The position numbers and the translations under genes were made by a program. 64,000 bases of DNA from positions 422,245 to 486,244 of the forward strand of contig CAWDFQ010000010.1 in NCBI GenBank assembly GCA_963801625.1, given 5' to 3'. The first letter of the stretch is position 1. Each line of letters begins with the position of its first letter. The notes beneath the pieces were generated by a model. That model was not told the origin of the DNA, searched no databases, and saw nothing but the letters and a program-made list of their open reading frames with translations. Shown in pieces: positions 3,641 to 34,157 of this stretch. Source of the stretch: an uncultured delta proteobacterium (lineage in GTDB: Bacteria > Myxococcota_A > UBA9160 > PR03).

Positions 3641-5174
3641 CTACTCACCGTCGCTCGCGTCGCTGCGACTCGCGAGCACACGCTCGAGGCGGCGCGGATC
3701 GCGCCGCAGGCGCAGCGACTTGCCACCCGTCACGTAGACGAGACCCGGCTTCGCGCCGCGCGGCTTCGAGACGCCCTTGATCGGCGCCACGGTCACCTGC
3801 GCTTCCGTCACTTTTCGGTGCTTCGAGAAGTGCACCGCCATCTCGGCCGCCTCGAGAATCGCCTCGGCAGGCGGGTCGCTGCGGCCTTCAGTGCGCAGCA
3901 CTACGTGGCTGCCCGGCGACGCTTCGAGGTGGAAGAAGAGATCGTTGCCGCGCGCGAGCCGCGTCGAGAGCAGGTCGTTGCCCTCGTCGCTGCGGCCGAC
4001 CCAGATCTCGAGGCCGCTGCTGCTGCGATACACGCGCGGAACGAGACGGGCCGGGATCTCCTGCTTGCCGAGCCGCCACACGCGACGCTTCGGAGCGGGT
4101 TCCGCGGTTGCGCCGGTCGAGGTCGCCGGCGCCGACTCGGCCGCGTAGCGCGCGAGCAGCCGCGCGACTTCGGGGATGTCCGCGAACGCAGCGAGCCCCG
4201 CGACGTCGCCCGCCGCGATCGTGTCGAAGGCCGCACGCAGAGCAACGAGCGCATCGCGACGCGCCTCCGCCTCGCCGGTCTCGCGCAGCGCCCGCGCCGC
4301 GCGCCGCTCGGCCTTGCGCGCCTTCGCGAACAGCGCGTCGAGATTTGCGCGCGGTGAGAGCGCGGGATCGAGCGGGATCGCAACCTCCTCGCCGCTCGCG
4401 AAGTCACGCACGCGCACTTCGCTCGCGCCGCGCTTCACGGAGCCGACGGCGCCCTTCAGCACTTCGCCCTGCTGGCGCAGCGCGCCCACGACGTCGCCCG
4501 CCGCCGCGTCGCCGCGCAGCAACGACAGTTTCTTCTCGATCGCCGCGAGCGCGCGGCGCAGCGCGCGGTCGAGCCGCCGCTGCGATCGTGTCGGACTCCC
4601 GCGCGCCCTCGCGTTGCGGCGGCGAGCGCTTCGAGCGCCGCGAAGAAACGCTCGTCGGGCTCTGCGGCGAAGCGATCCTCGCCCTCGCTCGGCGACTTCG
4701 AGCGCGGGACTCTTCCAGACCGCACCGACCGCGAGGTCGCGACGCGTCTCGGCGAGCGGCCGCAACGCGCCGAGGATGCGGCCCTCGGCGTCGAGCAGAT
4801 GGAGATTGGTGCGCGGGCCTAGGAGCGCGAGCAGCAACTCGAAGACGCCCGCTTCGCCCTCGAAGCGCAGCGCGGCCTGGCGATCGCCGTCGACGATGCG
4901 CGCGCCCGCGACGCGCGCTCCGCCGAGCCGCGCGCGCAGCAATTGCGCGAAGCCAGGAGGCGCCGGCGGCGCGGCGGGGCGTCTCTCGACCAGCGACAGC
5001 CGCGCGCTCGGCGGCTCGCAGCAGAAGAGCAGATGCAGGTCGCCGCGACCGGCTCGATACAGCGACACCACCACGCGCCGGTCGTCCGGCTGCACGATCT
5101 TCTCGACGCGCGCGCCCGCGCAGCTCGCGATCGACGATCGCCACCGCGCGGCGCAGCTCCGCGAGCGGCATCAT
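3641..5174 (-). CDS. NFACT/DUF814 (FbpA/RqcH-like) protein; one frameshift near the 5' end
   Basis: C-terminal DUF814-like block: GLEIWVGRSDEGNDLLSTRLARGNDLFFHLEASPGSHVVL. The N-terminus MMPLAELRRAVAIVDREL lies in another frame and joins at about 5100. The ATG overlaps the fpg stop (ATGA at 5171-5174). Confidence 0.7.
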
Positions 5175-6050
5175 CGCTGGCAGCTCGGGCAGTAGTGCGC
5201 GCTGCGCTGACCCAGCACGATGCGCTTCACCCGCGTGCCGCACACGAGACACGGCTCGCCCTCGCGCGCGTAGACCCGGCGCTCGTCCTGATAGGCGCCA
5301 TCCGCGCCGTCCGGCGCGATATAGTCGCTGATCGACGAGCCGCCGGTCTCGATCGAGCGCAGCAGCACGCGGCGCAGCGCGCGCGGCGATGCGCTCGTAC
5401 TCGTCGCGCGTCACGCGACCCGCGCGACGCGTCGGCCGCACGCCGGCGCCGAAGAGCGCTTCGTCGGCGTAGATGTTGCCGACGCCCGCCAGCACCGCCT
5501 GATCGAGCAGCAGGTTCTTCACCGCGACGCTGCGACCGCGACTCGCCGCGAACAGCGCGGCGCCGGTGACCTCGAGCGCGTCGACGCCGAGTCGGTCGAG
5601 TCGCTCGCGAATCTGCACCCGGCGCGAGCCACTGCACCTTGCCGAACTTGCGCGCGTCGCGCAGGAAGATCGTCGGGGCCGGCGTCGCGAAAATGGAGAC
5701 GCAGATGCGTGTGTTCATCGGGCGTCGAAGCGCGACTGCGCCTCGGGCGCGAGGCTGCCGCGCGCCGAAGCGCGCAGCAGCCGCGGACTCGTGACGGCGC
5801 TCGAGAAGAGCTGCCCCGTCATGCCGAGGTGGAGGAGCAAGCGGCTGCCGTCGTCGAGCTTCGCGACGAGGTACTTGCCCTGGCGCGCGAGCCCCTGCAC
5901 GCGGCGGCCGCCGAGTGCGCGACGCAGCGCCGCGGGCGGCGTCAGGAAGAAGTAGCTCGGCGCCGTGGTGTGGACGGCGTCGATGGTGCGACCGACCAGC
6001 AGCGGCGCGATGCGCCGCCGCGTGGTCTCGACTTCGGGGAGTTCGGGCAC
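5171..6050 (-). pseudogene. mutM: formamidopyrimidine-DNA glycosylase, split over three frames
   Basis: The N-terminus is MPELPEVETTRRRIAPLL (ORF 5715..6050). The middle is VKNLLLDQAVLAGVGNIYADEALFGAGVRP (frame of ORF 4404..5618). The C-terminal zinc finger is EGEPCLVCGTRVKRIVLGQRSAHYCPSCQR (ORF 5171..5368). Confidence 0.85.
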
Positions 6051-25739: not shown

Positions 25740-26480
25740 CTAGAGCGTGAGCTGGAGTGACGCCTCGGCCACCACGCGACGGATGCGCCCCAGCTCGACG
25801 TCCGGGATCCCGTGGAAGTGCACACCCATGCCGTGCGGCAGGTTCGCGCGGCGCAGGTTGCCGGGCACGCTCGTGTAGACGACGACCCCGGCGGCGCACA
25901 CCGGACTCGGCCACAAGTCCAGCTCCACCGAGATCGCGGCGCTGCGCATCGACGGGCGCTGCGTGTCGAGATAGACGCCGCCACTCGACAGCGTGTAGAC
26001 GCGCGCCGGCTTGCGGCGCCCCGCCTGGATCACGTGAGCGGGGATGTCGAGCGGAGCGCGCATCTCGGTACGCGAGACTTCCTGCGTGCCGAAGCCCGCG
26101 AGCGCGCGGTTCACCTGGAAGCGCAGCCGCGCATCGTCGATCGGTTCCCAGAGCGCGAGCCGCAGACCGGCCCCGCGGAGTTCGGCGAGCGACTCCTCGC
26201 CGGGGCACGCACCCACGACGACGTACGAGAGACGTCCCTGCGGCGCGCGCGCTGCAAGACTCGCCAGCGCCGCGCCGAGATCGGCGACCGCGAGCTGCGG
26301 AGGAATCAGCGCCGCCGTGACTCGATGGCGGTGTTCCTCGACGATCGCAAACGCTTCCTCGGGCGTCTTGGCGCGCATCGCGCGGTAGCCCATCTTGCGA
26401 ATGCGGTGGGTCAGCGCAGCCCGCGGCGCGTCGCTGCCATCGATGACGAGTACCGTGGACTCGATCGGCATGCTCCCCAC
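25740..26480 (-). CDS. receiver-like domain + PilZ domain protein
   Basis: Intact 246-aa ORF. N-terminal VLVIDGSDAPR... resembles a REC-like fold. C-terminal RxxxR / D-x-S-x-x-G-like block (RKPARVYTLSSGGVYL). Confidence 0.6.
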   Translation of the reverse strand: MGSMPIESTVLVIDGSDAPRAALTHRIRKMGYRAMRAKTPEEAFAIVEEHRHRVTAALIPPQLAVADLGAALASLAARAPQGRLSYVVVGACPGEESLAELRGAGLRLALWEPIDDARLRFQVNRALAGFGTQEVSRTEMRAPLDIPAHVIQAGRRKPARVYTLSSGGVYLDTQRPSMRSAAISVELDLWPSPVCAAGVVVYTSVPGNLRRANLPHGMGVHFHGIPDVELGRIRRVVAEASLQLTL

Positions 26481-26603
26481 TCCCTCTCCTGGGTTTCATC
26501 GGTTGGTCGAGGACCGGGTGTGAGCAGAGGAAGCGAGCGAGCAGGCGCGCGGCAGGACGGGATCGGCGAGACGCGGGCGCTGCGCGCGGGACGCGACAGA
26601 AGG

Positions 26604-27857
26604 CTACGCGGGCGGGTCGATGATCTCGGAGACGACGAGGCCCCGGCCGGGCTCGTCTGCCGCTTCGAGCACCGGCAGCGAGCCGACCATCTTTGCGAGA
26701 TAGCGCTCGGCAGGCGTGGAGAGATCGCGGAATCGCAGCGCGAAGCCGCGCTCGCCGTCGTCGCGCAGGATTTCGGCGTGCACGACGAGAGGCGTCTCGC
26801 CCGCCGTCACGTGGATCGCGAGCTGCAGGACCTGACCGGCGTGGAGATTCGGCGCGCGATCGACGCGCATCCCGCCAACCGAGAGATCGCGCCCGATCAG
26901 CACGCGCGTGGCCTGCTCGCCGAGCGCGACGACGCGGCGACCGGCAAGCGCGTGGCGCTCTGCGCCGCGTCGCTCATCGGCGTCCTGGGGTGTGGCGGTA
27001 TCGGCGACATCGCATGCGGAATCGGGAGCGAACCCTTCGTCGATCTCAGCGGGCGCGCGGGCGACTTCACGGCGCACCGAGCCGGTCACCTTGTAGGTGA
27101 CGGGCTGTGTCGCGCCAGCGTCCGGTGTCGGAACTTCCGGCGGCGCAGCTTGCGCCCGTGCGATGGCCGGCGAAACCAGCTCCTTCGATCCAGCGGCGGG
27201 ACCGTCGAGATGCGCGGCGACCGCCGCCTTGAGGTGCGGGACGAACTCCTTCGCGACCTTGCCGAAGTCGACGCCAAAGCCACGCTCGCCGCCGTCCGTC
27301 GTCATCGTGCGAACGACCGAGCCGCGCAGCGCAAAGCTGCGGCCGTCGGTCGCCGGATCGGGCACCCACACGACGACGCGCTGCCCGACGCGCACCTGAT
27401 GACGCGAGAGCAGCAGACATCCCCGCATCGAGAGATCCGCGAGCGTGCCGTCGCGCTTGAACAGCCCCAGCCGGAAGCGCACCGGCGCTCCAACCGCGAC
27501 GCGCCGGGTGCGTCGCTCGGGACCGCGATAGAGCGCATGCACCAACAACAGCCGCAGCGCCGCCGGATGCACCGGCCGCCGCACCACCAGATCGACGCCC
27601 GAACGCCGCAGCAGCGTGCACAGCGTGCGCGAGTTCCGGTCGAGCACCGCGATGCGCACCGCCTTCGCGCGACCGCCGGCGAGATGTTCGCTCTTGGCGT
27701 AACGCGCGGTCGTGACGAGCACGTCCCACTCGGGTGCAACGCCCGCCTCGACGCCCTCGATGACCTGCACGCCGATCGACGTGGCAAGCGCCTTCACGTC
27801 GGCGAGCTCGCCGTCGTGGATCATCAGGAGTGTGCGATTCGAAGCGTCGAGACCCAC
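26604..27857 (-). CDS. multi-PilZ domain protein
   Basis: Two PilZ-like blocks (RRTRRVAVGAPVRF...DLSMRGCLL and RHALAGRRVVAL...DLSVGGMRV). A GTG start at 27857 after ggag was chosen; an ATG at 27824 is the alternative. The ORF is open to 28808. Confidence 0.6.
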   Translation of the reverse strand: MGLDASNRTLLMIHDGELADVKALATSIGVQVIEGVEAGVAPEWDVLVTTARYAKSEHLAGGRAKAVRIAVLDRNSRTLCTLLRRSGVDLVVRRPVHPAALRLLLVHALYRGPERRTRRVAVGAPVRFRLGLFKRDGTLADLSMRGCLLLSRHQVRVGQRVVVWVPDPATDGRSFALRGSVVRTMTTDGGERGFGVDFGKVAKEFVPHLKAAVAAHLDGPAAGSKELVSPAIARAQAAPPEVPTPDAGATQPVTYKVTGSVRREVARAPAEIDEGFAPDSACDVADTATPQDADERRGAERHALAGRRVVALGEQATRVLIGRDLSVGGMRVDRAPNLHAGQVLQLAIHVTAGETPLVVHAEILRDDGERGFALRFRDLSTPAERYLAKMVGSLPVLEAADEPGRGLVVSEIIDPPA

Positions 27858-28019
27858 GTCGCTCCAGTCTGGACCGGCGGAAGACGACCAGTACGCGTCG
27901 CATCGGCAGCTCCTGCGCGGGTCTGAAGCGACGCGGGCCGGTTCGATCCCCTCAATCGGGGCGGTCGTCTGGTCGATCCGATCCGTCGGACCCAGGGGCG
28001 CGCGGGAAGGGACCCCAAC

Positions 28020-28724
28020 GTGCGAAGACGACTCCTGGCCCCGCTCCTGATTTGCGCGCTGCTTGCGCTTCCCGGCTGCGGGATCGCGAAGGGCGCCGCC
28101 CAGCGCTCGCTCGTCCGCTTCCTCGGCGGCACGGTCGCCGCGATGATCCTCGGCTCCGACGAAGCCGCTGCCGATGACGAGGCGTACGTCGAGCAAGACG
28201 ACACGACCGTCGCCGACGACGAGGGCGGCGGCGCCTTTTTCGGAAACGGCGAAGACGCCAGTGACGACGCGGCCGGCTCCGGCTTCTACAAGGTCGTCGA
28301 AACCAACGGCACCGTGCGCTTCGTCTCGAGTCTCGAGGAAGTACCTGCGGCGCAACGACCAAAGGCCGAGCGCATCGCTTCCCGATCGATCAGCGGCGGG
28401 GGCGACGCGAAGCGCAGCGCTCCGTCGCGTCGCGCTGCGCAGCAGCTCGCGGCCGCGAAGTCTGCGGAGCCGGCGGCGTTCCCCAACGGCGGCCATGAAG
28501 TCGTCGTCTACACCACGTCCTGGTGCGGCTGGTGCAAGAAAACGCTCGCCTGGCTCGACGCGAAAGGCATCGACTACGAGAACCGCGACGTCGAAACGAG
28601 CGCGGCGTGGGCCGAAGAGATGCACGATCTCACCGGCTCGGGTGGCGTCCCGGTGATCGTGATCGACGGCGAGGTAATCAAGGGCTTCAACCAGGCGCAG
28701 ATGGAAAAAATGCTGCGCGGCTAG
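28020..28724 (+). CDS. lipoprotein with C-terminal glutaredoxin domain
   Basis: Lipobox LLALPGC, an acidic low-complexity middle, and VVVYTTSWCGWCKKTLAWLDAKGIDYENRDV...GVPVIVIDGEVIKGF. Confidence 0.8.
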   Translation: MRRRLLAPLLICALLALPGCGIAKGAAQRSLVRFLGGTVAAMILGSDEAAADDEAYVEQDDTTVADDEGGGAFFGNGEDASDDAAGSGFYKVVETNGTVRFVSSLEEVPAAQRPKAERIASRSISGGGDAKRSAPSRRAAQQLAAAKSAEPAAFPNGGHEVVVYTTSWCGWCKKTLAWLDAKGIDYENRDVETSAAWAEEMHDLTGSGGVPVIVIDGEVIKGFNQAQMEKMLRG

Positions 28725-28774
28725 TGATCGTTTCCTGCACGCGGCGCGATTGCGCGGGATGTTTTCGGTAGTCT

Positions 28775-29581
28775 GTGGCGACCACGAGGACGCTGATGCC
28801 GCGAACACGCGTGTTGGAAGCTTTGGAAGACGGCGTGCTGCTGCTCACGCTGAATCGCCCCGAACGGAAGAACGCCTTCGACGAGACGATGTGGCGCGAG
28901 GCACGCGACGCGCTGGCCGACGCGCTGGCCGACGACGCCGTGCGCGCGGTCATCGTGACGGGCGCGGGCGAGGCGTTTTCCGCCGGACAGGATCTCGGTC
29001 AGATGGCTGCCCGACCCGACGACGAACCGCCCGGCTTCCCGGGCTTCATGGACCGCCTCAGCGCTTTCGACAAGCCGCTGCTCGCGGCCGTGAACGGTGT
29101 CGGCGTCGGCATCGGGCTCACCATGCTGCTGCACTGCGACGTGGTCTGGATGGCGGAGCAAGCGCGGCTGCGCGCGCCGTTCGTCCAGCTCGGCGTCGTA
29201 CCCGAAGCGGCGAGCAGCTATCTGCTGCCGCTTCAGTTGGGCCACCAACGCGCGGCGGAGATGCTCTTCGTCGCGGAGTGGATCGATGCGCGACGCGCCG
29301 TCGAACTGGGCATCGCGACGCGCGTGGTGCCGCGCGCGCAGCTGCTCCCCGAGATGCGTGCGCTCGCGATGCGCATCGCGGCGCAGCCGCTCGGTGCGCT
29401 GCGCTGGACCAAGCGGACGTTGCTCGCCGTGCGTGCCGACGGGATCCGCGCGGCGCGCCGCCGCGAAGATGCGGCCTTCGCGGTACGCATCGGCTCCCCG
29501 GAGAATCAGGAGGCGCTGCACGCCTTCTTCGAGAAGCGCCCACCCGACTTCAGGAAGGTGCCGGCAAGCGATCGCGAGTAA
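28775..29581 (+). CDS. enoyl-CoA hydratase/isomerase
   Basis: Intact 268-aa ORF. VIVTGAGEAFSAGQDL and AAVNGVGVGIGLTMLLHCD. Confidence 0.9.
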   Translation: MATTRTLMPRTRVLEALEDGVLLLTLNRPERKNAFDETMWREARDALADALADDAVRAVIVTGAGEAFSAGQDLGQMAARPDDEPPGFPGFMDRLSAFDKPLLAAVNGVGVGIGLTMLLHCDVVWMAEQARLRAPFVQLGVVPEAASSYLLPLQLGHQRAAEMLFVAEWIDARRAVELGIATRVVPRAQLLPEMRALAMRIAAQPLGALRWTKRTLLAVRADGIRAARRREDAAFAVRIGSPENQEALHAFFEKRPPDFRKVPASDRE

Positions 29582-29813
29582 CACGCGGCGCCGGCGAGGT
29601 CGGCGGCTCGACGTCGCCGCCTTCGGTGTCGGGCTCGCAGGGGGCGCGGTGGCGCGCCGCCTTGCAGGGCTTGGGGCTGCGCTGGTGATCGCGGTAGCGA
29701 ATGCCGCAGTCGCGGCACTGGAGATCGGGCCCGAAGCGGTGGCCCTGCGCCGAACTCGGTTGCGGCTCCGCGCCCTGTGGGTCGCGGCGACGCGGCGGGC
29801 GCTCGGGCGTCAT
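29550..29813 (-). CDS. small Cys-containing, Pro/Arg-rich ORF (87 aa), third gene of the TIR-like cassette
   Basis: The ATG lies 1 nt after the TIR-gene stop (aggagATGAgATG). GC3 is about 84% by hand count. It contains LQCRDCGIRYRDHQRSPKPCKAARHRAPC. Its last 10 codons overlap the convergent hydratase gene. The composition also resembles spurious GC-rich ORFs. Confidence 0.35.
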   Translation of the reverse strand: MTPERPPRRRDPQGAEPQPSSAQGHRFGPDLQCRDCGIRYRDHQRSPKPCKAARHRAPCEPDTEGGDVEPPTSPAPRVTRDRLPAPS

Positions 29814-29814
29814 C

Positions 29815-30261
29815 TCATCTCCTGCCGAGCCCGCGCGGCTCGTTTGCCTCGATCTCGCTGCCGGATCGCATTCGCACGGCGGTGTCGATCTGCGACGTGA
29901 TGACGTCCCAGCTCCACGCGTAGAAGTGATCGTTCGCCTTGGCTGCGACGGGCTTGGTGCACGACGCGCTGCGACGGCCCCAGAGCAGCACATAGGGCTT
30001 GCCCTGTTCTTGCACGATGCTGAACTCGCGATTCACGTTCGACGCCGCGACGGTGTGTTCACCACAGATTACGACGACGACGTCCACGCCGTTCATGCGC
30101 CCGCGCAACTTGTCTTCCCAGCCGGAGTGCGGAACTTCCTCCCGCGACCAGTCCTGGACGGAGAGCGTGGAGCCCGGCGCAACGCACTGCTTCGCGAAGA
30201 GGGCATGCAGATCGGCATCGTGCCCGGAGTCGAAACACGCGAAGATGCGGAGCGCCGTCAT
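29815..30261 (-). CDS. TIR-like domain protein (DUF1863 / ThsB-like)
   Basis: LRIFACFDSGHDADLHALF...W(x)nGVDVVVVICGEHTVAASNVNREFSIVQEQGKPYVLLWG matches the family pattern as I recall it: vF.S....D...f...W...i...vivliG..T..s.WV..Ei.....gkp. Confidence 0.55.
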   Translation of the reverse strand: MTALRIFACFDSGHDADLHALFAKQCVAPGSTLSVQDWSREEVPHSGWEDKLRGRMNGVDVVVVICGEHTVAASNVNREFSIVQEQGKPYVLLWGRRSASCTKPVAAKANDHFYAWSWDVITSQIDTAVRMRSGSEIEANEPRGLGRR

Positions 30262-30265
30262 GCCC

Positions 30266-30472
30266 TCACCCCTTGCGGTCTTCGAAGGGATCTCCGGATG
30301 CGCCGCGCGGGAGGCCGTACCCGTCGAGTTCCTCGCGCGTCGCGACGCGCGGGCCAGCGTCGTCGGACCCGCGTTCCGGGCGGCGGGTGCGGTCCTCGCG
30401 TTTGCGGGCAGCTTTCTCGTCGCGCGCCCGCTCGCGGTCGCGCTTCAGCATGGACGGCTTCTTGGCAGCCAC
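30266..30472 (-). CDS. small highly charged protein (68 aa), first gene of the TIR-like cassette
   Basis: GTG follows gaggtg. The product is MAAKKPSMLKRDRERARDEKAARKREDRTRRPERGSDDAGPRVATREELDGYGLPRGASGDPFEDRKG. The stop lies 4 nt before the TIR ATG. The ORF is open up to 30664, but GC3 drops upstream. Confidence 0.4.
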   Translation of the reverse strand: MAAKKPSMLKRDRERARDEKAARKREDRTRRPERGSDDAGPRVATREELDGYGLPRGASGDPFEDRKG

Positions 30473-30757
30473 GGGGCACCTCGACTCGGCAAGGGAAAGC
30501 GTGGAGTTTTCCGCCGAGGGACAGCGCCCAATCGGCGAAATCGACCGCAGACTAGCATTTTCGACGCGGCCGACCCCACGAAGGACCCGAGCTGCGCGCA
30601 GCGTCGTCGCGAGCGACGATTTCGCCGGCTCGCAGCGGCGTCCGTCGGTCTCCGGTCCTGTCATGCCGCGGTAGCCCGGGCTTCATCTGCAGACGAAGTT
30701 CTCCGACGACTCCTCCGTCGAAGCGCGCCCCGTACGCACGAACGCATGGGAGGAGCC

Positions 30758-30985
30758 ATGAAGATCTGGCCCGTACCCGGCACCCTGCTCTCGCTCGTCA
30801 GCGGTTCGCTGCCCGATGCAACGCCCAACGACCTCGACGACGTAGACGAGAACGAGATCGTCCACGTCGCACCCAGCGGCTTCGGCATCGAAGGCGACGG
30901 CTACTACGTCTGGGACGAGGACCGCCGCGAAGCAGAAGACTGGGCGACCCTGCTGGCCAGCCCGGCGTTTCCGAAGCGTTCGTGA
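30758..30985 (+). CDS. small acidic hypothetical protein (75 aa)
   Basis: Strong RBS gggaggag before the ATG. The product is MKIWPVPGTLLSLVSGSLPDATPNDLDDVDENEIVHVAPSGFGIEGDGYYVWDEDRREAEDWATLL. It is divergent from the TIR-like cassette. Confidence 0.45.
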   Translation: MKIWPVPGTLLSLVSGSLPDATPNDLDDVDENEIVHVAPSGFGIEGDGYYVWDEDRREAEDWATLLASPAFPKRS

Positions 30986-31064
30986 CTTCGCCTCGGGCTT
31001 CGCGCGCTTTGCTGTGCAGCGACTCGACCTGCGCGCGCGACCTCCGCGTGGAGCTCGGGTCCGG

Positions 31065-31550
31065 CTACTTCCACTCTTCGGGCTTCGCCGTCGCGAGATG
31101 CTGGATCCACCACTGCGGCGCGCGTCCGAGCAGCGTCTGCAAGTCCCAGTAGTCGCGCCAGGCGGCGATCTTGCCGTCGTCGCGGATCTCGTGGATCGAG
31201 ACGAACGGCAGCTCCACGACCTCGCCGGTCGGGAAGTGCCAGTCTTCCTGATGCTCGGTGACGACGGTGTCGCCGTCGCAGACCATGAACTTCAAATGGT
31301 GTACCTGCTTCTCGAGCGGCTCGAGCCCGAGCCGCAGCCGCGCCGCGACGCCGCGCGGACCGACCGCGCCGGCATCGGGCGTCGGCACGTCGACGTAGCT
31401 GCCGTCGGCGGCGAAGAAGGCGCCGACGCCGTCGAAGTCGCGGCGGTAGAGGGTGTCCCAGAAGCGGCGGATGAGGTCGAGGTTCTGCTCGCGCGTGCGC
31501 ATCGCGGCGAGCATACCAGCGACCGGCTCGATGCGAGGCTCGGTCCGCAT
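31065..31550 (-). CDS. SnoaL-like / limonene-1,2-epoxide hydrolase family protein
   Basis: Intact 161-aa ORF. NLDLIRRFWDTLYRRDFDGVGAFFAADGSYVDVP ... WRDYWD. Confidence 0.7.
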   Translation of the reverse strand: MRTEPRIEPVAGMLAAMRTREQNLDLIRRFWDTLYRRDFDGVGAFFAADGSYVDVPTPDAGAVGPRGVAARLRLGLEPLEKQVHHLKFMVCDGDTVVTEHQEDWHFPTGEVVELPFVSIHEIRDDGKIAAWRDYWDLQTLLGRAPQWWIQHLATAKPEEWK

Positions 31551-31591
31551 GACGTTGCAGCGAGGCCACGCCCTCCGCTATCCCGCTCTTC

Positions 31592-32398
31592 GTGACGACG
31601 CGCTTCGACCGCGACACCGCCGTCCGCAAGCTCGACGCGCCCGCCGGCGCGACGGTCCACGAGGCGTGCATCGACCGCGGCTGGTGGGTGGTGCGCGGTC
31701 CCAACGGCGGCTACGTCGCGGCGCTCGTGTTGCGGGCGCTCGCGGGCAGCGTTGATGCGGATCGCGCGCCGCGCTCGCTCACCGTTCACTACACGGCCCC
31801 GCCGGTCGAAGGCCCGGTGCGCATCGAGACACGCGTCGAGCGGGTCGGTCGCTCGATGAGCGCCGTGTCGGGACGCATGCTGCAGGGCGATCGCGTGCTG
31901 GCGCTCGCGCTCGGCGCGTTTTCGAAGCCGCGCGTCGGCCCGAGCTTCGACGACACCGCGATGCCCGACGCGCCGCCGCCCGAAGACTGCGAGTCGTTCG
32001 CGAAGATGATTCCGATCCACGAGCGCTACGACTACCGCTTCGCGGTTGGCACGCCGCCCGGATCGGGCGCGGATCGGGCGCTCATCGGCGGCTGGATCCG
32101 CAGCGCCGAGCCGCGTGTCGCAGATGCCGCGCTCGTCACCGCGTTCACCGACGCATGGCCGCCGGCGTGCTTCGCGTGGGCGAAGGATCCCGACGGGATC
32201 GGCCCAGTGCCCACCGTCGACCTCACCGTCCATTTTCGCCGCGAGTTGCCGCTCGCGAACGCGAGGCCCGACGACTTCTATCTCGCGGTGTTCCGCTCGC
32301 GCTTCGCAGAGCAGGGCTTCGTCGAAGAAGACGGCGAAGTATGGAGTCGCGACGGACTGCTACTCGCGCAGTCGCGCCAACTCGCCGTGATCGGCTGA
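31592..32398 (+). CDS. acyl-CoA thioesterase (TesB-like double hotdog)
   Basis: Intact 268-aa ORF. WWVVRGPNGGYVAALVLRAL and C-terminal SRDGLLLAQSRQLAV. Confidence 0.7.
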   Translation: MTTRFDRDTAVRKLDAPAGATVHEACIDRGWWVVRGPNGGYVAALVLRALAGSVDADRAPRSLTVHYTAPPVEGPVRIETRVERVGRSMSAVSGRMLQGDRVLALALGAFSKPRVGPSFDDTAMPDAPPPEDCESFAKMIPIHERYDYRFAVGTPPGSGADRALIGGWIRSAEPRVADAALVTAFTDAWPPACFAWAKDPDGIGPVPTVDLTVHFRRELPLANARPDDFYLAVFRSRFAEQGFVEEDGEVWSRDGLLLAQSRQLAVIG

Positions 32399-33207: not shown

Positions 33208-33266
33208 TCCGGCCGCCCTTCCAGTTCAGTCTCGATGCCGGGCGTCCGAAACGAGACGGCGACGCC

Positions 33267-34157
33267 ATGCCGATCGATCGCGATACACCCAAGATCACGC
33301 TCACCGATCCGGAGGTCCTCGCGCCGTCGGGTGGTGAGACCTGTCTGGTTTCGATCTACGGGCCGAATCTCGGTCGGCGCTGGTCGGTCGACCGCGACGA
33401 AATGATCGTCGGTCGCGAGAACGAGTGCGACGTGATGGCGCCGATCGACACCGTGTCGCGGCGCCACTGCCTGCTGCGCCAACGCGGAGGAGCGGTCTTC
33501 CTCACCGACCTCGGTTCGACCAACGGCACCGCGCTGAACGACGAGGTGCTCCCGCCCCACGAGGAGTTCACGCTGCACTCCGGCGACCGGATCCGCGCCG
33601 GCTCAGCGATCTTCAAGTTCCTGCGCGGCGACGACGTCGAGTCGCTCTATCACGAAGAGATCTACCGCACGATGATCGCGGACGGTCTCACCGGCGCGCA
33701 CAATCGGCGCTTCTTCAGCGAGTTCCTCGAGCGCGAGATGGCCCGCTGCTCGCGCCACGGTCGCCCGCTCTCGCTCGTGCTCTTCGACCTCGATCACTTC
33801 AAACTCGTGAACGACGGCTTCGGTCACCTGAGCGGCGACGAGGTGCTGCGCGAAGTGGCGAAGCTGGTGCGAGAACAAGTGCGCCGCGAGGACTGCTTCG
33901 CGCGATACGGCGGCGAGGAGTTCGCCGTGGTGCTGACCGAAACCAATCTCGAAGCCGCACTCGAGTTTGCCGAGCGACTGCGCGGGCGCGTCGAGGTACA
34001 CGAGTTCAAGGCCGGCAGCGAGTCGATCCCCGTCACGATCTCGGTGGGCGTCGCCGCGATGACCCGGGACACGCGCGATTCCGCCGACTTCCTCGCCGCC
34101 GTCGACACCCACCTCTACGAAGCCAAGTCCGCCGGCCGCAACCGCATCGCCAGCTAA
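33267..34157 (+). CDS. FHA domain + GGDEF diguanylate cyclase
   Basis: FHA region: IVGRENECDVMAPIDTVSRRHCLLRQRGGAVFLTDLGSTNGTALN. GGDEF region: LTGAHNRRFF...FDLDHFKLVNDGFGH...RYGGEEFAVV. Confidence 0.9.
   Translation: MPIDRDTPKITLTDPEVLAPSGGETCLVSIYGPNLGRRWSVDRDEMIVGRENECDVMAPIDTVSRRHCLLRQRGGAVFLTDLGSTNGTALNDEVLPPHEEFTLHSGDRIRAGSAIFKFLRGDDVESLYHEEIYRTMIADGLTGAHNRRFFSEFLEREMARCSRHGRPLSLVLFDLDHFKLVNDGFGHLSGDEVLREVAKLVREQVRREDCFARYGGEEFAVVLTETNLEAALEFAERLRGRVEVHEFKAGSESIPVTISVGVAAMTRDTRDSADFLAAVDTHLYEAKSAGRNRIAS

Follow-up and report, generated by a model that had tools for sequence, protein, structure and literature searches.

What does a Thoeris-type TIR protein do at a place in the genome that offers it no effector to activate, when the phage-triggered generation of a signal for a killing effector is all that has so far been known of bacterial TIRs of this type? 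The question is raised by a minus-strand gene cassette in a 64,000-nt stretch of DNA from an uncultured delta proteobacterium (GenBank assembly GCA_963801625.1, contig CAWDFQ010000010.1, positions 422,245 to 486,244), hereafter the window, which a preliminary description made from the letters alone had read as a possible stand-alone TIR module of signalling or defence. As comparative sequence analysis shows, positions 30472..29550 (-), in the Myxococcota-type genome of a soil myxobacterium, represent an operon of three genes that is inherited vertically and codes for KRE68, a small and basic protein, for a TIR enzyme and for a mini-protein with a CCHC knuckle (PR87). Across the Myxococcota loci collected herein, this TIR always lies directly behind a KRE or an RRM gene, with a DEAD-box helicase gene in that place in one locus. 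The explanation that we favour, albeit tentatively, is that a TIR of the Thoeris lineage was recruited into an operon of RNA-binding proteins, where its role would be associated with RNA. The cassette and the gene facing it are as follows.

30472..30266, minus strand: KRE68, operon gene 1, a Lys/Arg/Glu-rich protein of 68 aa with a GTG start, beginning MAAKKPSMLKRDRERAR
30261..29815, minus strand: TIR, operon gene 2, a ThsB-type protein of 148 aa
29813..29550, minus strand: PR87, operon gene 3, a Pro/Arg-rich mini-protein of 87 aa
28775..29581, convergent to the cassette: enoyl-CoA hydratase gene (ECH), overlapped by 32 nt by the 3' end of PR87

The four open reading frames (ORFs) of the preliminary description, the fourth being a divergent acidic one (acid75) treated further below, were all recovered at the same coordinates, with 4 nt between the KRE68 stop codon and the TIR ATG and 1 nt between the TIR stop codon and the PR87 ATG. 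Shine-Dalgarno-like motifs precede all three cassette ORFs (GAGGTG for KRE68, AAGGGG for TIR, and for PR87 a strong AGGAGA located 4 nt 5' of the ATG). The window has a G+C content of ~70% throughout, with no break in composition at the cassette, and long chance ORFs are common all over this high-G+C sequence. While the G+C contents at the three codon positions of TIR (0.61/0.48/0.84) were coding-like, those of KRE68 and PR87 were less decisive, and these two genes were therefore judged by their conservation.

The TIR protein passed the gathering cut-off of Pfam PF08937 (ThsB_TIR; 24.4 bits against 21.2, E=4e-5) and matched the PADLOC profile ThsB1 (E=9e-6); its match to TIR_2 (PF13676) was below the cut-off (18.3 vs 28). 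An AlphaFold2 (AF2) model built from 21 homologues (pLDDT 85, pTM 0.79) gave 8fz9 (a TIR from B. cereus, E=1e-5) and 8wcf (EcThsB) as the best Foldseek matches in the PDB, followed by the N-glycosidases MilB and DNPH1 and, further down, by the ThsB structures 6lhy and 8v6t, and the TM-scores against ThsB/TIR structures were ~0.55-0.6. The protein is thus a member of the ThsB/TIR family, all testable features of which were found in it, and the assignment in the preliminary description was borne out by the Pfam, PADLOC and structural comparisons alike. The same is true of the Glu that the description had placed at the TIR catalytic position: Glu79 aligns with the Glu in the corresponding stretch of the ThsB/TIR profile, shares its number with E79 of PsTIR, and does not vary among 67 TIR copies drawn from all clades. 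Among the conserved motifs are VVVICGEHT and PYVLLWGRR, and the residues D11, D15, D60, VVVxCGE, C66, E79, C101, P104, Y114 and W116 are invariant across the caspase-linked TIRs introduced below and the Myxococcota TIR clades. Judged from these residues, the catalytic signature is intact. To this common core the Myxococcota clades add WGRR at positions 94-97, Cys9 and a C-terminal extension (TIR residues ~124-148; window 29815..29890 (-)) that is absent from the caspase-linked TIRs. The end of this extension is a disordered tail in which a G-L-(R/G)-x-R-(R/K) motif recurs, and it could serve as a docking site.

TIR domains of animals are classically adaptors, and the protein might likewise have lost its catalysis and serve a ribonucleoprotein complex as a scaffold or adaptor with no enzymatic function. 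The Myxococcota-specific surface changes (WGRR 94-97, Cys9 and the C-terminal extension), together with the animal precedent, would suit such a role. However, of the residues that never vary in the caspase-linked TIRs, both Myxococcota clades have kept all, Glu79 included, which would be unexpected after a loss of catalysis, and we consider the scaffold very unlikely.

The two small neighbours of TIR were examined by comparison with related loci, which are numbered with the prefix L. KRE68 combines a basic helix in its N-terminal part (residues 6-30) with the conserved motif GPRVATRxELDGYGL and an SGDPF tail. Between the window and L008 it is conserved more strongly than any other protein of the neighbourhood (93% identity in protein and 85% in DNA, with 4, 2 and 25 substitutions at the first, second and third codon positions), and its homologues form 49 clusters in a database of 5.8 billion proteins, with no match in Pfam, NCBIfam, PADLOC or the PDB. 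A KRE68 gene is located directly 5' of TIR in 16/16 complete close loci, and the adjacency persists where the other flanks differ, as in L001 with its genes for a questin oxidase and a pyridoxal 5'-phosphate (PLP) decarboxylase, and in L066, the most distant detectable KRE-TIR pair. This pattern of conservation marks KRE68 as a real gene.

The core of PR87, GHRFGPxLxCxRCGxxxxDHxxxPxxC, contains a zinc-knuckle-like CX2CX6HX6C arrangement. The gene is intact in L007-L010, with substitutions by codon position of 13/8/29, 9/9/24 and 13/7/24, and carries an in-frame 9-nt deletion in L009. Homologues are found directly 3' of TIR in L011, L012, L013 and L015, four loci with an RRM gene upstream and a TIR of 43-48% identity; pairwise BLASTP between PR87 and the homologues that follow these distant TIRs gave E=2e-13 and 3e-14. 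PR87 has also been called as a gene by the NCBI (MBS1105900.1) and JGI pipelines, and its cluster has 33 members. In L003-type loci only 6 nt separate TIR from the convergent ECH gene, and PR87, for which these loci have no space, could on that ground be taken for spurious; the bias of its substitutions towards third positions and its cross-clade homologues overturn that view, and PR87, too, is a real gene. Searches of Pfam, NCBIfam, PADLOC and PDB sequences returned nothing usable for PR87 or acid75. With TIR itself showing 16, 6 and 40 substitutions at the three codon positions against L008, purifying selection acts on all three cassette genes. Just 3' of TIR in L015 (8644..8931 (-)) and L066 (1241..1450 (-)), there are in addition small convergent ORFs with paired CxxC motifs of zinc-ribbon-like appearance, of which that in L066 has faint matches to Pfam Zn_ribbon families; they are unrelated to PR87 in sequence.

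The preliminary description had offered as its alternative an orphan TIR next to spurious GC-rich ORFs. In a genome of ~70% G+C with many long chance ORFs, and with small products devoid of database domains, this was a natural suspicion, but it is ruled out by the conservation of the two partners: KRE68, with its 49 homologous clusters, is conserved beyond any other protein of the neighbourhood, PR87 has coding-type substitutions, an in-frame indel and homologues across clades, and only acid75 behaves as a chance ORF. We regard this alternative as virtually untenable.

In a scan limited to one genome per species, 56 TIR loci were obtained, to which metagenomic loci were added, and clustering of the neighbours together with targeted tblastn sorted the loci into three contexts, KRE-TIR, RRM-TIR and TIR-caspase. 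The KRE-TIR group, with or without the zinc-knuckle gene, comprises the window, L001-L010 and L064-L066, originating from metagenome-assembled genomes (MAGs) labelled 'Deltaproteobacteria' or Myxococcota, unlabelled metagenomic contigs and one MAG record labelled Spirochaetales. The RRM-TIR group comprises 21 loci, mostly from Myxococcota- or Deltaproteobacteria-labelled MAGs and in four cases from MAGs labelled Spirochaete, in all 21 of which a gene for a 90-100-aa RRM_1 protein (Pfam E=3e-23) lies upstream of TIR on the same strand at a distance of 60-340 nt, with flanks otherwise unrelated from locus to locus. Three of these loci (L021, L035 and L048) read RRM-KRE-TIR, a diverged KRE gene (hidden Markov model E ~1e-8) lying in between, and the four loci with PR87 homologues named above (L011-L013 and L015) carry the zinc-knuckle gene 3' of TIR. 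In L047, a DEAD-box helicase gene is located directly upstream of TIR in place of the RRM gene. DEAD-box RNA helicase genes were observed beside or near the Myxococcota-type TIR in three loci altogether (L047 6709..7989, L020 7584..8726 and L001 8002..9255), and tandem copies of the module occur in L035 (6100..8465, RRM-KRE-TIR-RRM-TIR) and L048 (6630..8441, RRM-KRE, a 295-nt gap, then RRM-KRE-TIR).

The third context is that of the TIR relatives outside Myxococcota, the nearest of which are 37-45% identical to the TIR of the window. A Peptidase_C14 gene adjoins TIR in 21 of 32 such loci, and the context spans many other phyla, plasmids and one viral contig. Its typical form is a 129-aa TIR beside a Peptidase_C14 protein of ~324 aa (Pfam E=6e-19; PADLOC 'caspase'), sometimes with a second TIR, and in RefSeq plasmids a 'TIR domain-containing protein' adjoins a 'caspase family protein'. 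This is the layout of type IV Thoeris, composed of the TIR protein ThsB and the caspase-like protease ThsE, in which the TIR makes N7-cyclic ADP-ribose (N7-cADPR) that activates the protease, and in which defence is lost with either mutation, PsTIR E79Q or PsCaspase C129A (Rousset et al., bioRxiv 10.1101/2024.10.24.620036). The caspase of L057 has a Cys at position 129. Two TIRs outside Myxococcota that lack a caspase gene (L034 2164..2673 and L061 4347..4958) are paired with an 8xMP octameric membrane protein (PF24838), and the TIR of L039 (8419..10088) is accompanied by a membrane protein of 367 aa and a TIR-like DUF4062 protein; these pairings are probably other Thoeris effector configurations. 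In a midpoint-rooted neighbour-joining tree, the caspase-linked TIRs formed a clade apart from two Myxococcota clades. By sequence, the TIR of the window belongs to a lineage whose other members pair with caspase-like proteases.

Compared with type IV Thoeris, the cassette shares a short TIR (~130-150 aa) of common lineage, 37-45% identical to the caspase-adjacent TIRs and with the same invariant core, in which Glu79 corresponds to the catalytic residue of PsTIR in number and motif. It differs in its partners, which in Myxococcota are a basic protein of 68 aa, an RRM protein or a mini-protein with the CCHC knuckle, in the additional C-terminal extension of TIR, and in its position at a stable chromosomal site among metabolic genes instead of in a defence island or mobile element. 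No caspase-like gene was detected by tblastn, either in the 64-kb window with two ThsE-like caspases as queries or within 8 kb of TIR in any of ~40 Myxococcota loci. With ThsB of type I and II Thoeris (PF08937/DUF1863; 6lhy, 8wcf and 8v6t), the TIR shares the Pfam family and the fold, but the identity in structural alignments is only 11-18%, and there is no SIR2/SLOG or Macro ThsA partner: neither Pfam applied to seven flanking genes nor PADLOC applied to the 10 genes within ~8 kb revealed a SIR2, Macro or SLOG domain, in line with the statement in the preliminary description that no ThsA-type effector is in view. Because the defining effectors and context of these systems were searched for and not found, the locus is not a type I, II or IV Thoeris system.

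The partner KRE provided a second line of evidence. A profile search of 1.84 billion representative proteins showed that KRE68 belongs to a wider family of 89 representative clusters, 55-120 aa in length, along which KRE68 aligns throughout, and which is characterized by a basic helix SVLKRQRExKKAEKAAxKRE, a VATxxDLxGYG motif and then an acidic tail. In the reverse direction, tblastn with a distant member matched the window at 30451..30311 (E=5e-8). One member has been annotated from a Planctomycetota MAG. A metagenome scan with a distant subgroup of the family collected 80 loci (L070-L149), the neighbours of which were taken from GC3-filtered gene calls. None of the 80 contained this TIR. Directly 3' of KRE, 42 of the 65 loci with enough downstream sequence carried a gene for an NYN-domain protein (Pfam E=5e-35) of 254 aa, 78-92% identical across loci (e.g. 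L144 4001..4960 and L137 3700..5000), and an RRM gene was located directly 5' of KRE in 17 of the 57 loci with enough upstream sequence; the complete order RRM-KRE-NYN was found in nine. The NYN gene was found in none of the TIR loci, the window included, and the zinc-knuckle family gave only one weak match in the NYN-type loci (E=1e-3).

These gene orders mark KRE as a generic small component of RNA-related clusters. Since the wider family normally sits in RRM-KRE-NYN clusters, the TIR occupies the slot that is held elsewhere by an NYN RNase. The window shares with these clusters the KRE family and, in the related RRM-TIR loci, the upstream RRM gene, and its enzyme gene stands in the same downstream position with the same tight linkage; it differs in that this gene encodes a TIR instead of an NYN/PIN-like RNase, and no RRM or NYN gene is present in the window itself. 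A precedent for the association of RRM and NYN proteins is known from cyanobacteria, where the RRM protein Rbp3 of Synechocystis co-purifies with two LabA/NYN proteins and ribosomes (PMC12232666). The RRM-KRE-NYN cluster, which is widespread and fits these data, is apparently undescribed, as is the KRE family as far as literature searches reached: neither RRM-TIR nor KRE-type operons turned up in searches of full texts.

The gene order, in which a small gene comes first and an enzyme gene second with 4 nt or an ATGA overlap between them, is also typical of type II toxin-antitoxin systems, and KRE68 could accordingly be thought to neutralise the downstream enzyme (the TIR as an NADase here, an NYN/PIN-like RNase in the wider family), with PR87 as an accessory regulator. 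That the KRE family precedes two unrelated, potentially toxic enzymes and that the wider family has an acidic tail would agree with such a pair, but the KRE motifs, namely the basic helix and VATxxDLxGYG, are the same whether the partner is TIR or NYN, which argues against a partner-specific inhibitor. Moreover, the NYN partners are as uniform across loci (78-92% identity) as core genes, the cassette, present in one copy, is syntenic and inherited vertically, KRE is missing altogether from ~18 RRM-TIR loci, and L063 retains the supposed antitoxin after the supposed toxin has been lost. We consider a toxin-antitoxin pair distinctly improbable. In L063, an intact KRE gene (5055..5267) with no TIR is separated from a PLP decarboxylase gene by genes for a TetR regulator, an MFS transporter and a 168-aa membrane-like ORF (downstream to 8692), the decarboxylase being that which follows TIR in the syntenic L001.

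The evolutionary behaviour of the cassette was in keeping with that of its neighbours. Between the window and L008, the amino-acid identities were 93% for KRE, 88% for ECH, 88% for TIR, 77% for the PilZ protein and 65% for glutaredoxin (Grx), and the position of the cassette, with TauD or SnoaL on one side and ECH-Grx-PilZ on the other, is constant down to a TIR identity of 64%. The cassette thus evolves at the pace of its core neighbours as a single-copy, vertically inherited unit. Pfam identified ECH, Grx, PilZ, SnoaL, acyl-CoA thioesterase and FHA-GGDEF among the seven flanking genes of the window, relatives keep the PilZ-Grx-ECH block in synteny with the cassette, and their further flanks include genes for a luciferase-like monooxygenase, a nucleoside hydrolase, an SDR protein, a glyoxalase and cytochrome c. 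PADLOC gave no match for the 10 window genes within ~8 kb of the cassette and nothing meaningful for 20 flanking proteins in all (10 from the window and 10 from relatives). The cassette was absent from viral contigs, one of which carries a TIR-caspase pair, and on plasmids all matches to the TIR family were of the caspase type, none with the cassette. Nothing in this context points to defence. Of the preliminary reading, a ThsB-type TIR with two real small partners and no ThsA nearby has stood, but a place for the acidic ORF in the module and a role in defence found no support: the cassette lies at a stable syntenic site among genes of metabolism and signalling, none of them matched by PADLOC.

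This bears on the possibility of Thoeris-like anti-phage signalling with an unlinked effector, in which the TIR would sense infection, perhaps through the state of the small partners or of host RNA-binding proteins, and an N7-cADPR-like signal would activate an effector, caspase-like or not, whose gene lies elsewhere. Effector swapping is known for Thoeris TIR clusters (10.64898/2025.12.03.692087), caspase, 8xMP and DUF4062 partners all occur within this TIR family, and the TIR, 37-45% identical to those of the TIR-caspase operons, has all of their invariant residues in common with them. A dispersed system of this kind is nevertheless unlikely in our estimation, if by no means negligible: no effector lies within 8 kb in ~40 Myxococcota loci, the flanks are metabolic and free of PADLOC matches, a fixed syntenic site and slow, core-like evolution are unlike the patchy distribution typical of defence genes, viral contigs and plasmids lack the cassette, and the KRE family is tied elsewhere to RRM and NYN genes, not to defence genes. 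A systematic survey of Thoeris discarded TIRs with no recognisable multigene defence context (10.64898/2025.12.03.692087).

From the caspase-linked lineage of the TIR and the RRM-KRE-NYN context of the KRE family, it follows that an RNA-linked role outside immunity is no less likely than a defence module that stands alone. The enzyme type that is otherwise paired with a caspase sits here between two tiny proteins of RNA-associated appearance, which suggests that the TIR has been rewired to a new set of partners. In the RNA-associated explanation that we favour, the TIR would remain an N-glycosidase acting on the nicotinamide-ribose bond and would work in association with RNA or RNA-binding proteins by way of its small partners, the Arg/Lys-rich helix of KRE and the CCHC knuckle presumably being tethers or regulators and the Myxococcota-specific C-terminal tail of TIR a place for docking. 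Two chemistries may be envisaged. The first is the removal of nicotinamide from NAD-capped RNA (deNAMing), by which the TIR, like the NYN RNase, would initiate the turnover of RNA; the second is the formation, depending on the state of RNA, of a cyclic ADPR-type signal that is read by an unlinked receptor. RNA-directed chemistry is slightly favoured over the cADPR-type signal. Bacterial TIR proteins, AbTir among others, have been reported to remove nicotinamide from NAD-capped RNA in vitro and upon heterologous expression (PMC10937652). They resemble the TIR of the window in having a TIR domain with a Glu at the catalytic position, but they belong to a different TIR subfamily and no dedicated RNA-binding partners have been described for them. 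By analogy, deNAMing, the only documented RNA-directed activity of bacterial TIRs, would fit a neighbourhood of RNA-binding genes. The boldest form of this explanation, that the protein is the first bacterial TIR with a housekeeping role directed at RNA, tethered by KRE, the CCHC knuckle and RRM, performing deNAMing or marking RNA, and replacing the NYN RNase, is a doubtful though by no means idle proposition.

Several points weigh against the recruitment of the TIR into an RNA-associated role. The link between TIR and RNA is one of guilt by association only, drawn by analogy from gene neighbourhoods, and KRE68 and PR87 have no detectable domain or solved relative in Pfam, NCBIfam and PDB searches; the AF2 model of KRE68 is a lone helix (residues 6-30, pLDDT ~80) of modest confidence. 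L063, which keeps KRE and lacks TIR, shows that the pair is not obligatory for KRE. Moreover, the product that the closest characterised TIR relatives make from NAD+ is a free signalling nucleotide and not an RNA, and the receptor for such a free signal could sit anywhere in a large genome. As for the direction of evolution, the TIR may have been captured from a defence operon or the reverse may have occurred, the midpoint-rooted neighbour-joining tree being compatible with either.

There is a real chance that the locus represents a functionally new, non-immune use of a Thoeris TIR. An enzyme of the same lineage as the phage-triggered signal generators, its catalytic signature intact, is fixed here as part of the core genome in a Myxococcota group, beside proteins of RNA-associated appearance. 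If it indeed acts on NAD-capped RNA or signals the state of RNA, it would provide a physiological setting for TIR deNAMing, an activity so far seen in vitro or under overexpression only, and it would show how immune enzymes and housekeeping modules exchange parts. New in any case are two undescribed families of small proteins, KRE and the GHRFGP-CCHC knuckle, and the RRM-KRE-NYN cluster.

The remaining features concern the region upstream of the cassette.

30549..30558, minus strand: ATGCTAGTCT, candidate promoter element, a -10-like TAnnnT with an upstream TG, 77 nt 5' of the KRE68 start codon
30758..30985, plus strand: acid75, a divergent acidic ORF of 75 aa

The element ATGCTAGTCT is kept in the window, L007-L010, L003, L064 and L067, in the midst of diverged upstream sequence, and may be the promoter of the operon; we infer this from its conservation only, since a scan for sigma-70 promoter and intrinsic-terminator consensus sequences gave no sites. 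An RNA element in the KRE 5' leader was considered and rejected, the consensus fold being weak (-3.6 kcal/mol), and no convincing conserved structure was found in the 5' untranslated region before KRE68. An Rfam scan of 28500..32000 returned only the Rhizobiales-2 small RNA family at 31048..31158 (+), below the gathering threshold (29.7 bits against 40, E=0.86), which was taken as a chance match; it falls inside or antisense to the SnoaL gene.

The divergent ORF acid75, which the preliminary description had listed alongside the cassette, behaved otherwise than the cassette genes. Its 21 substitutions against L007 are spread evenly over the codon positions (7/7/7), a 113-nt indel deletes its 3' half in L007, where the start ATG is replaced by GTG, and L008-L010 have no counterpart ORF. 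By these comparisons acid75 is not conserved and stands outside the unit, so that the expected co-conservation of the small ORFs with TIR held for KRE68 and PR87, which recur beside TIR homologues, but not for acid75. The region around it forms a hypervariable patch relative to L007 2200..3015, with ~15% substitutions between sides that are 97-98% identical, which may reflect relaxed constraint or recombination. Further out, genes of c-di-GMP-type signalling are abundant near the cassette (25740..28808 and 33261..34157), two PilZ genes lying on one side and an FHA-GGDEF diguanylate cyclase gene on the other.

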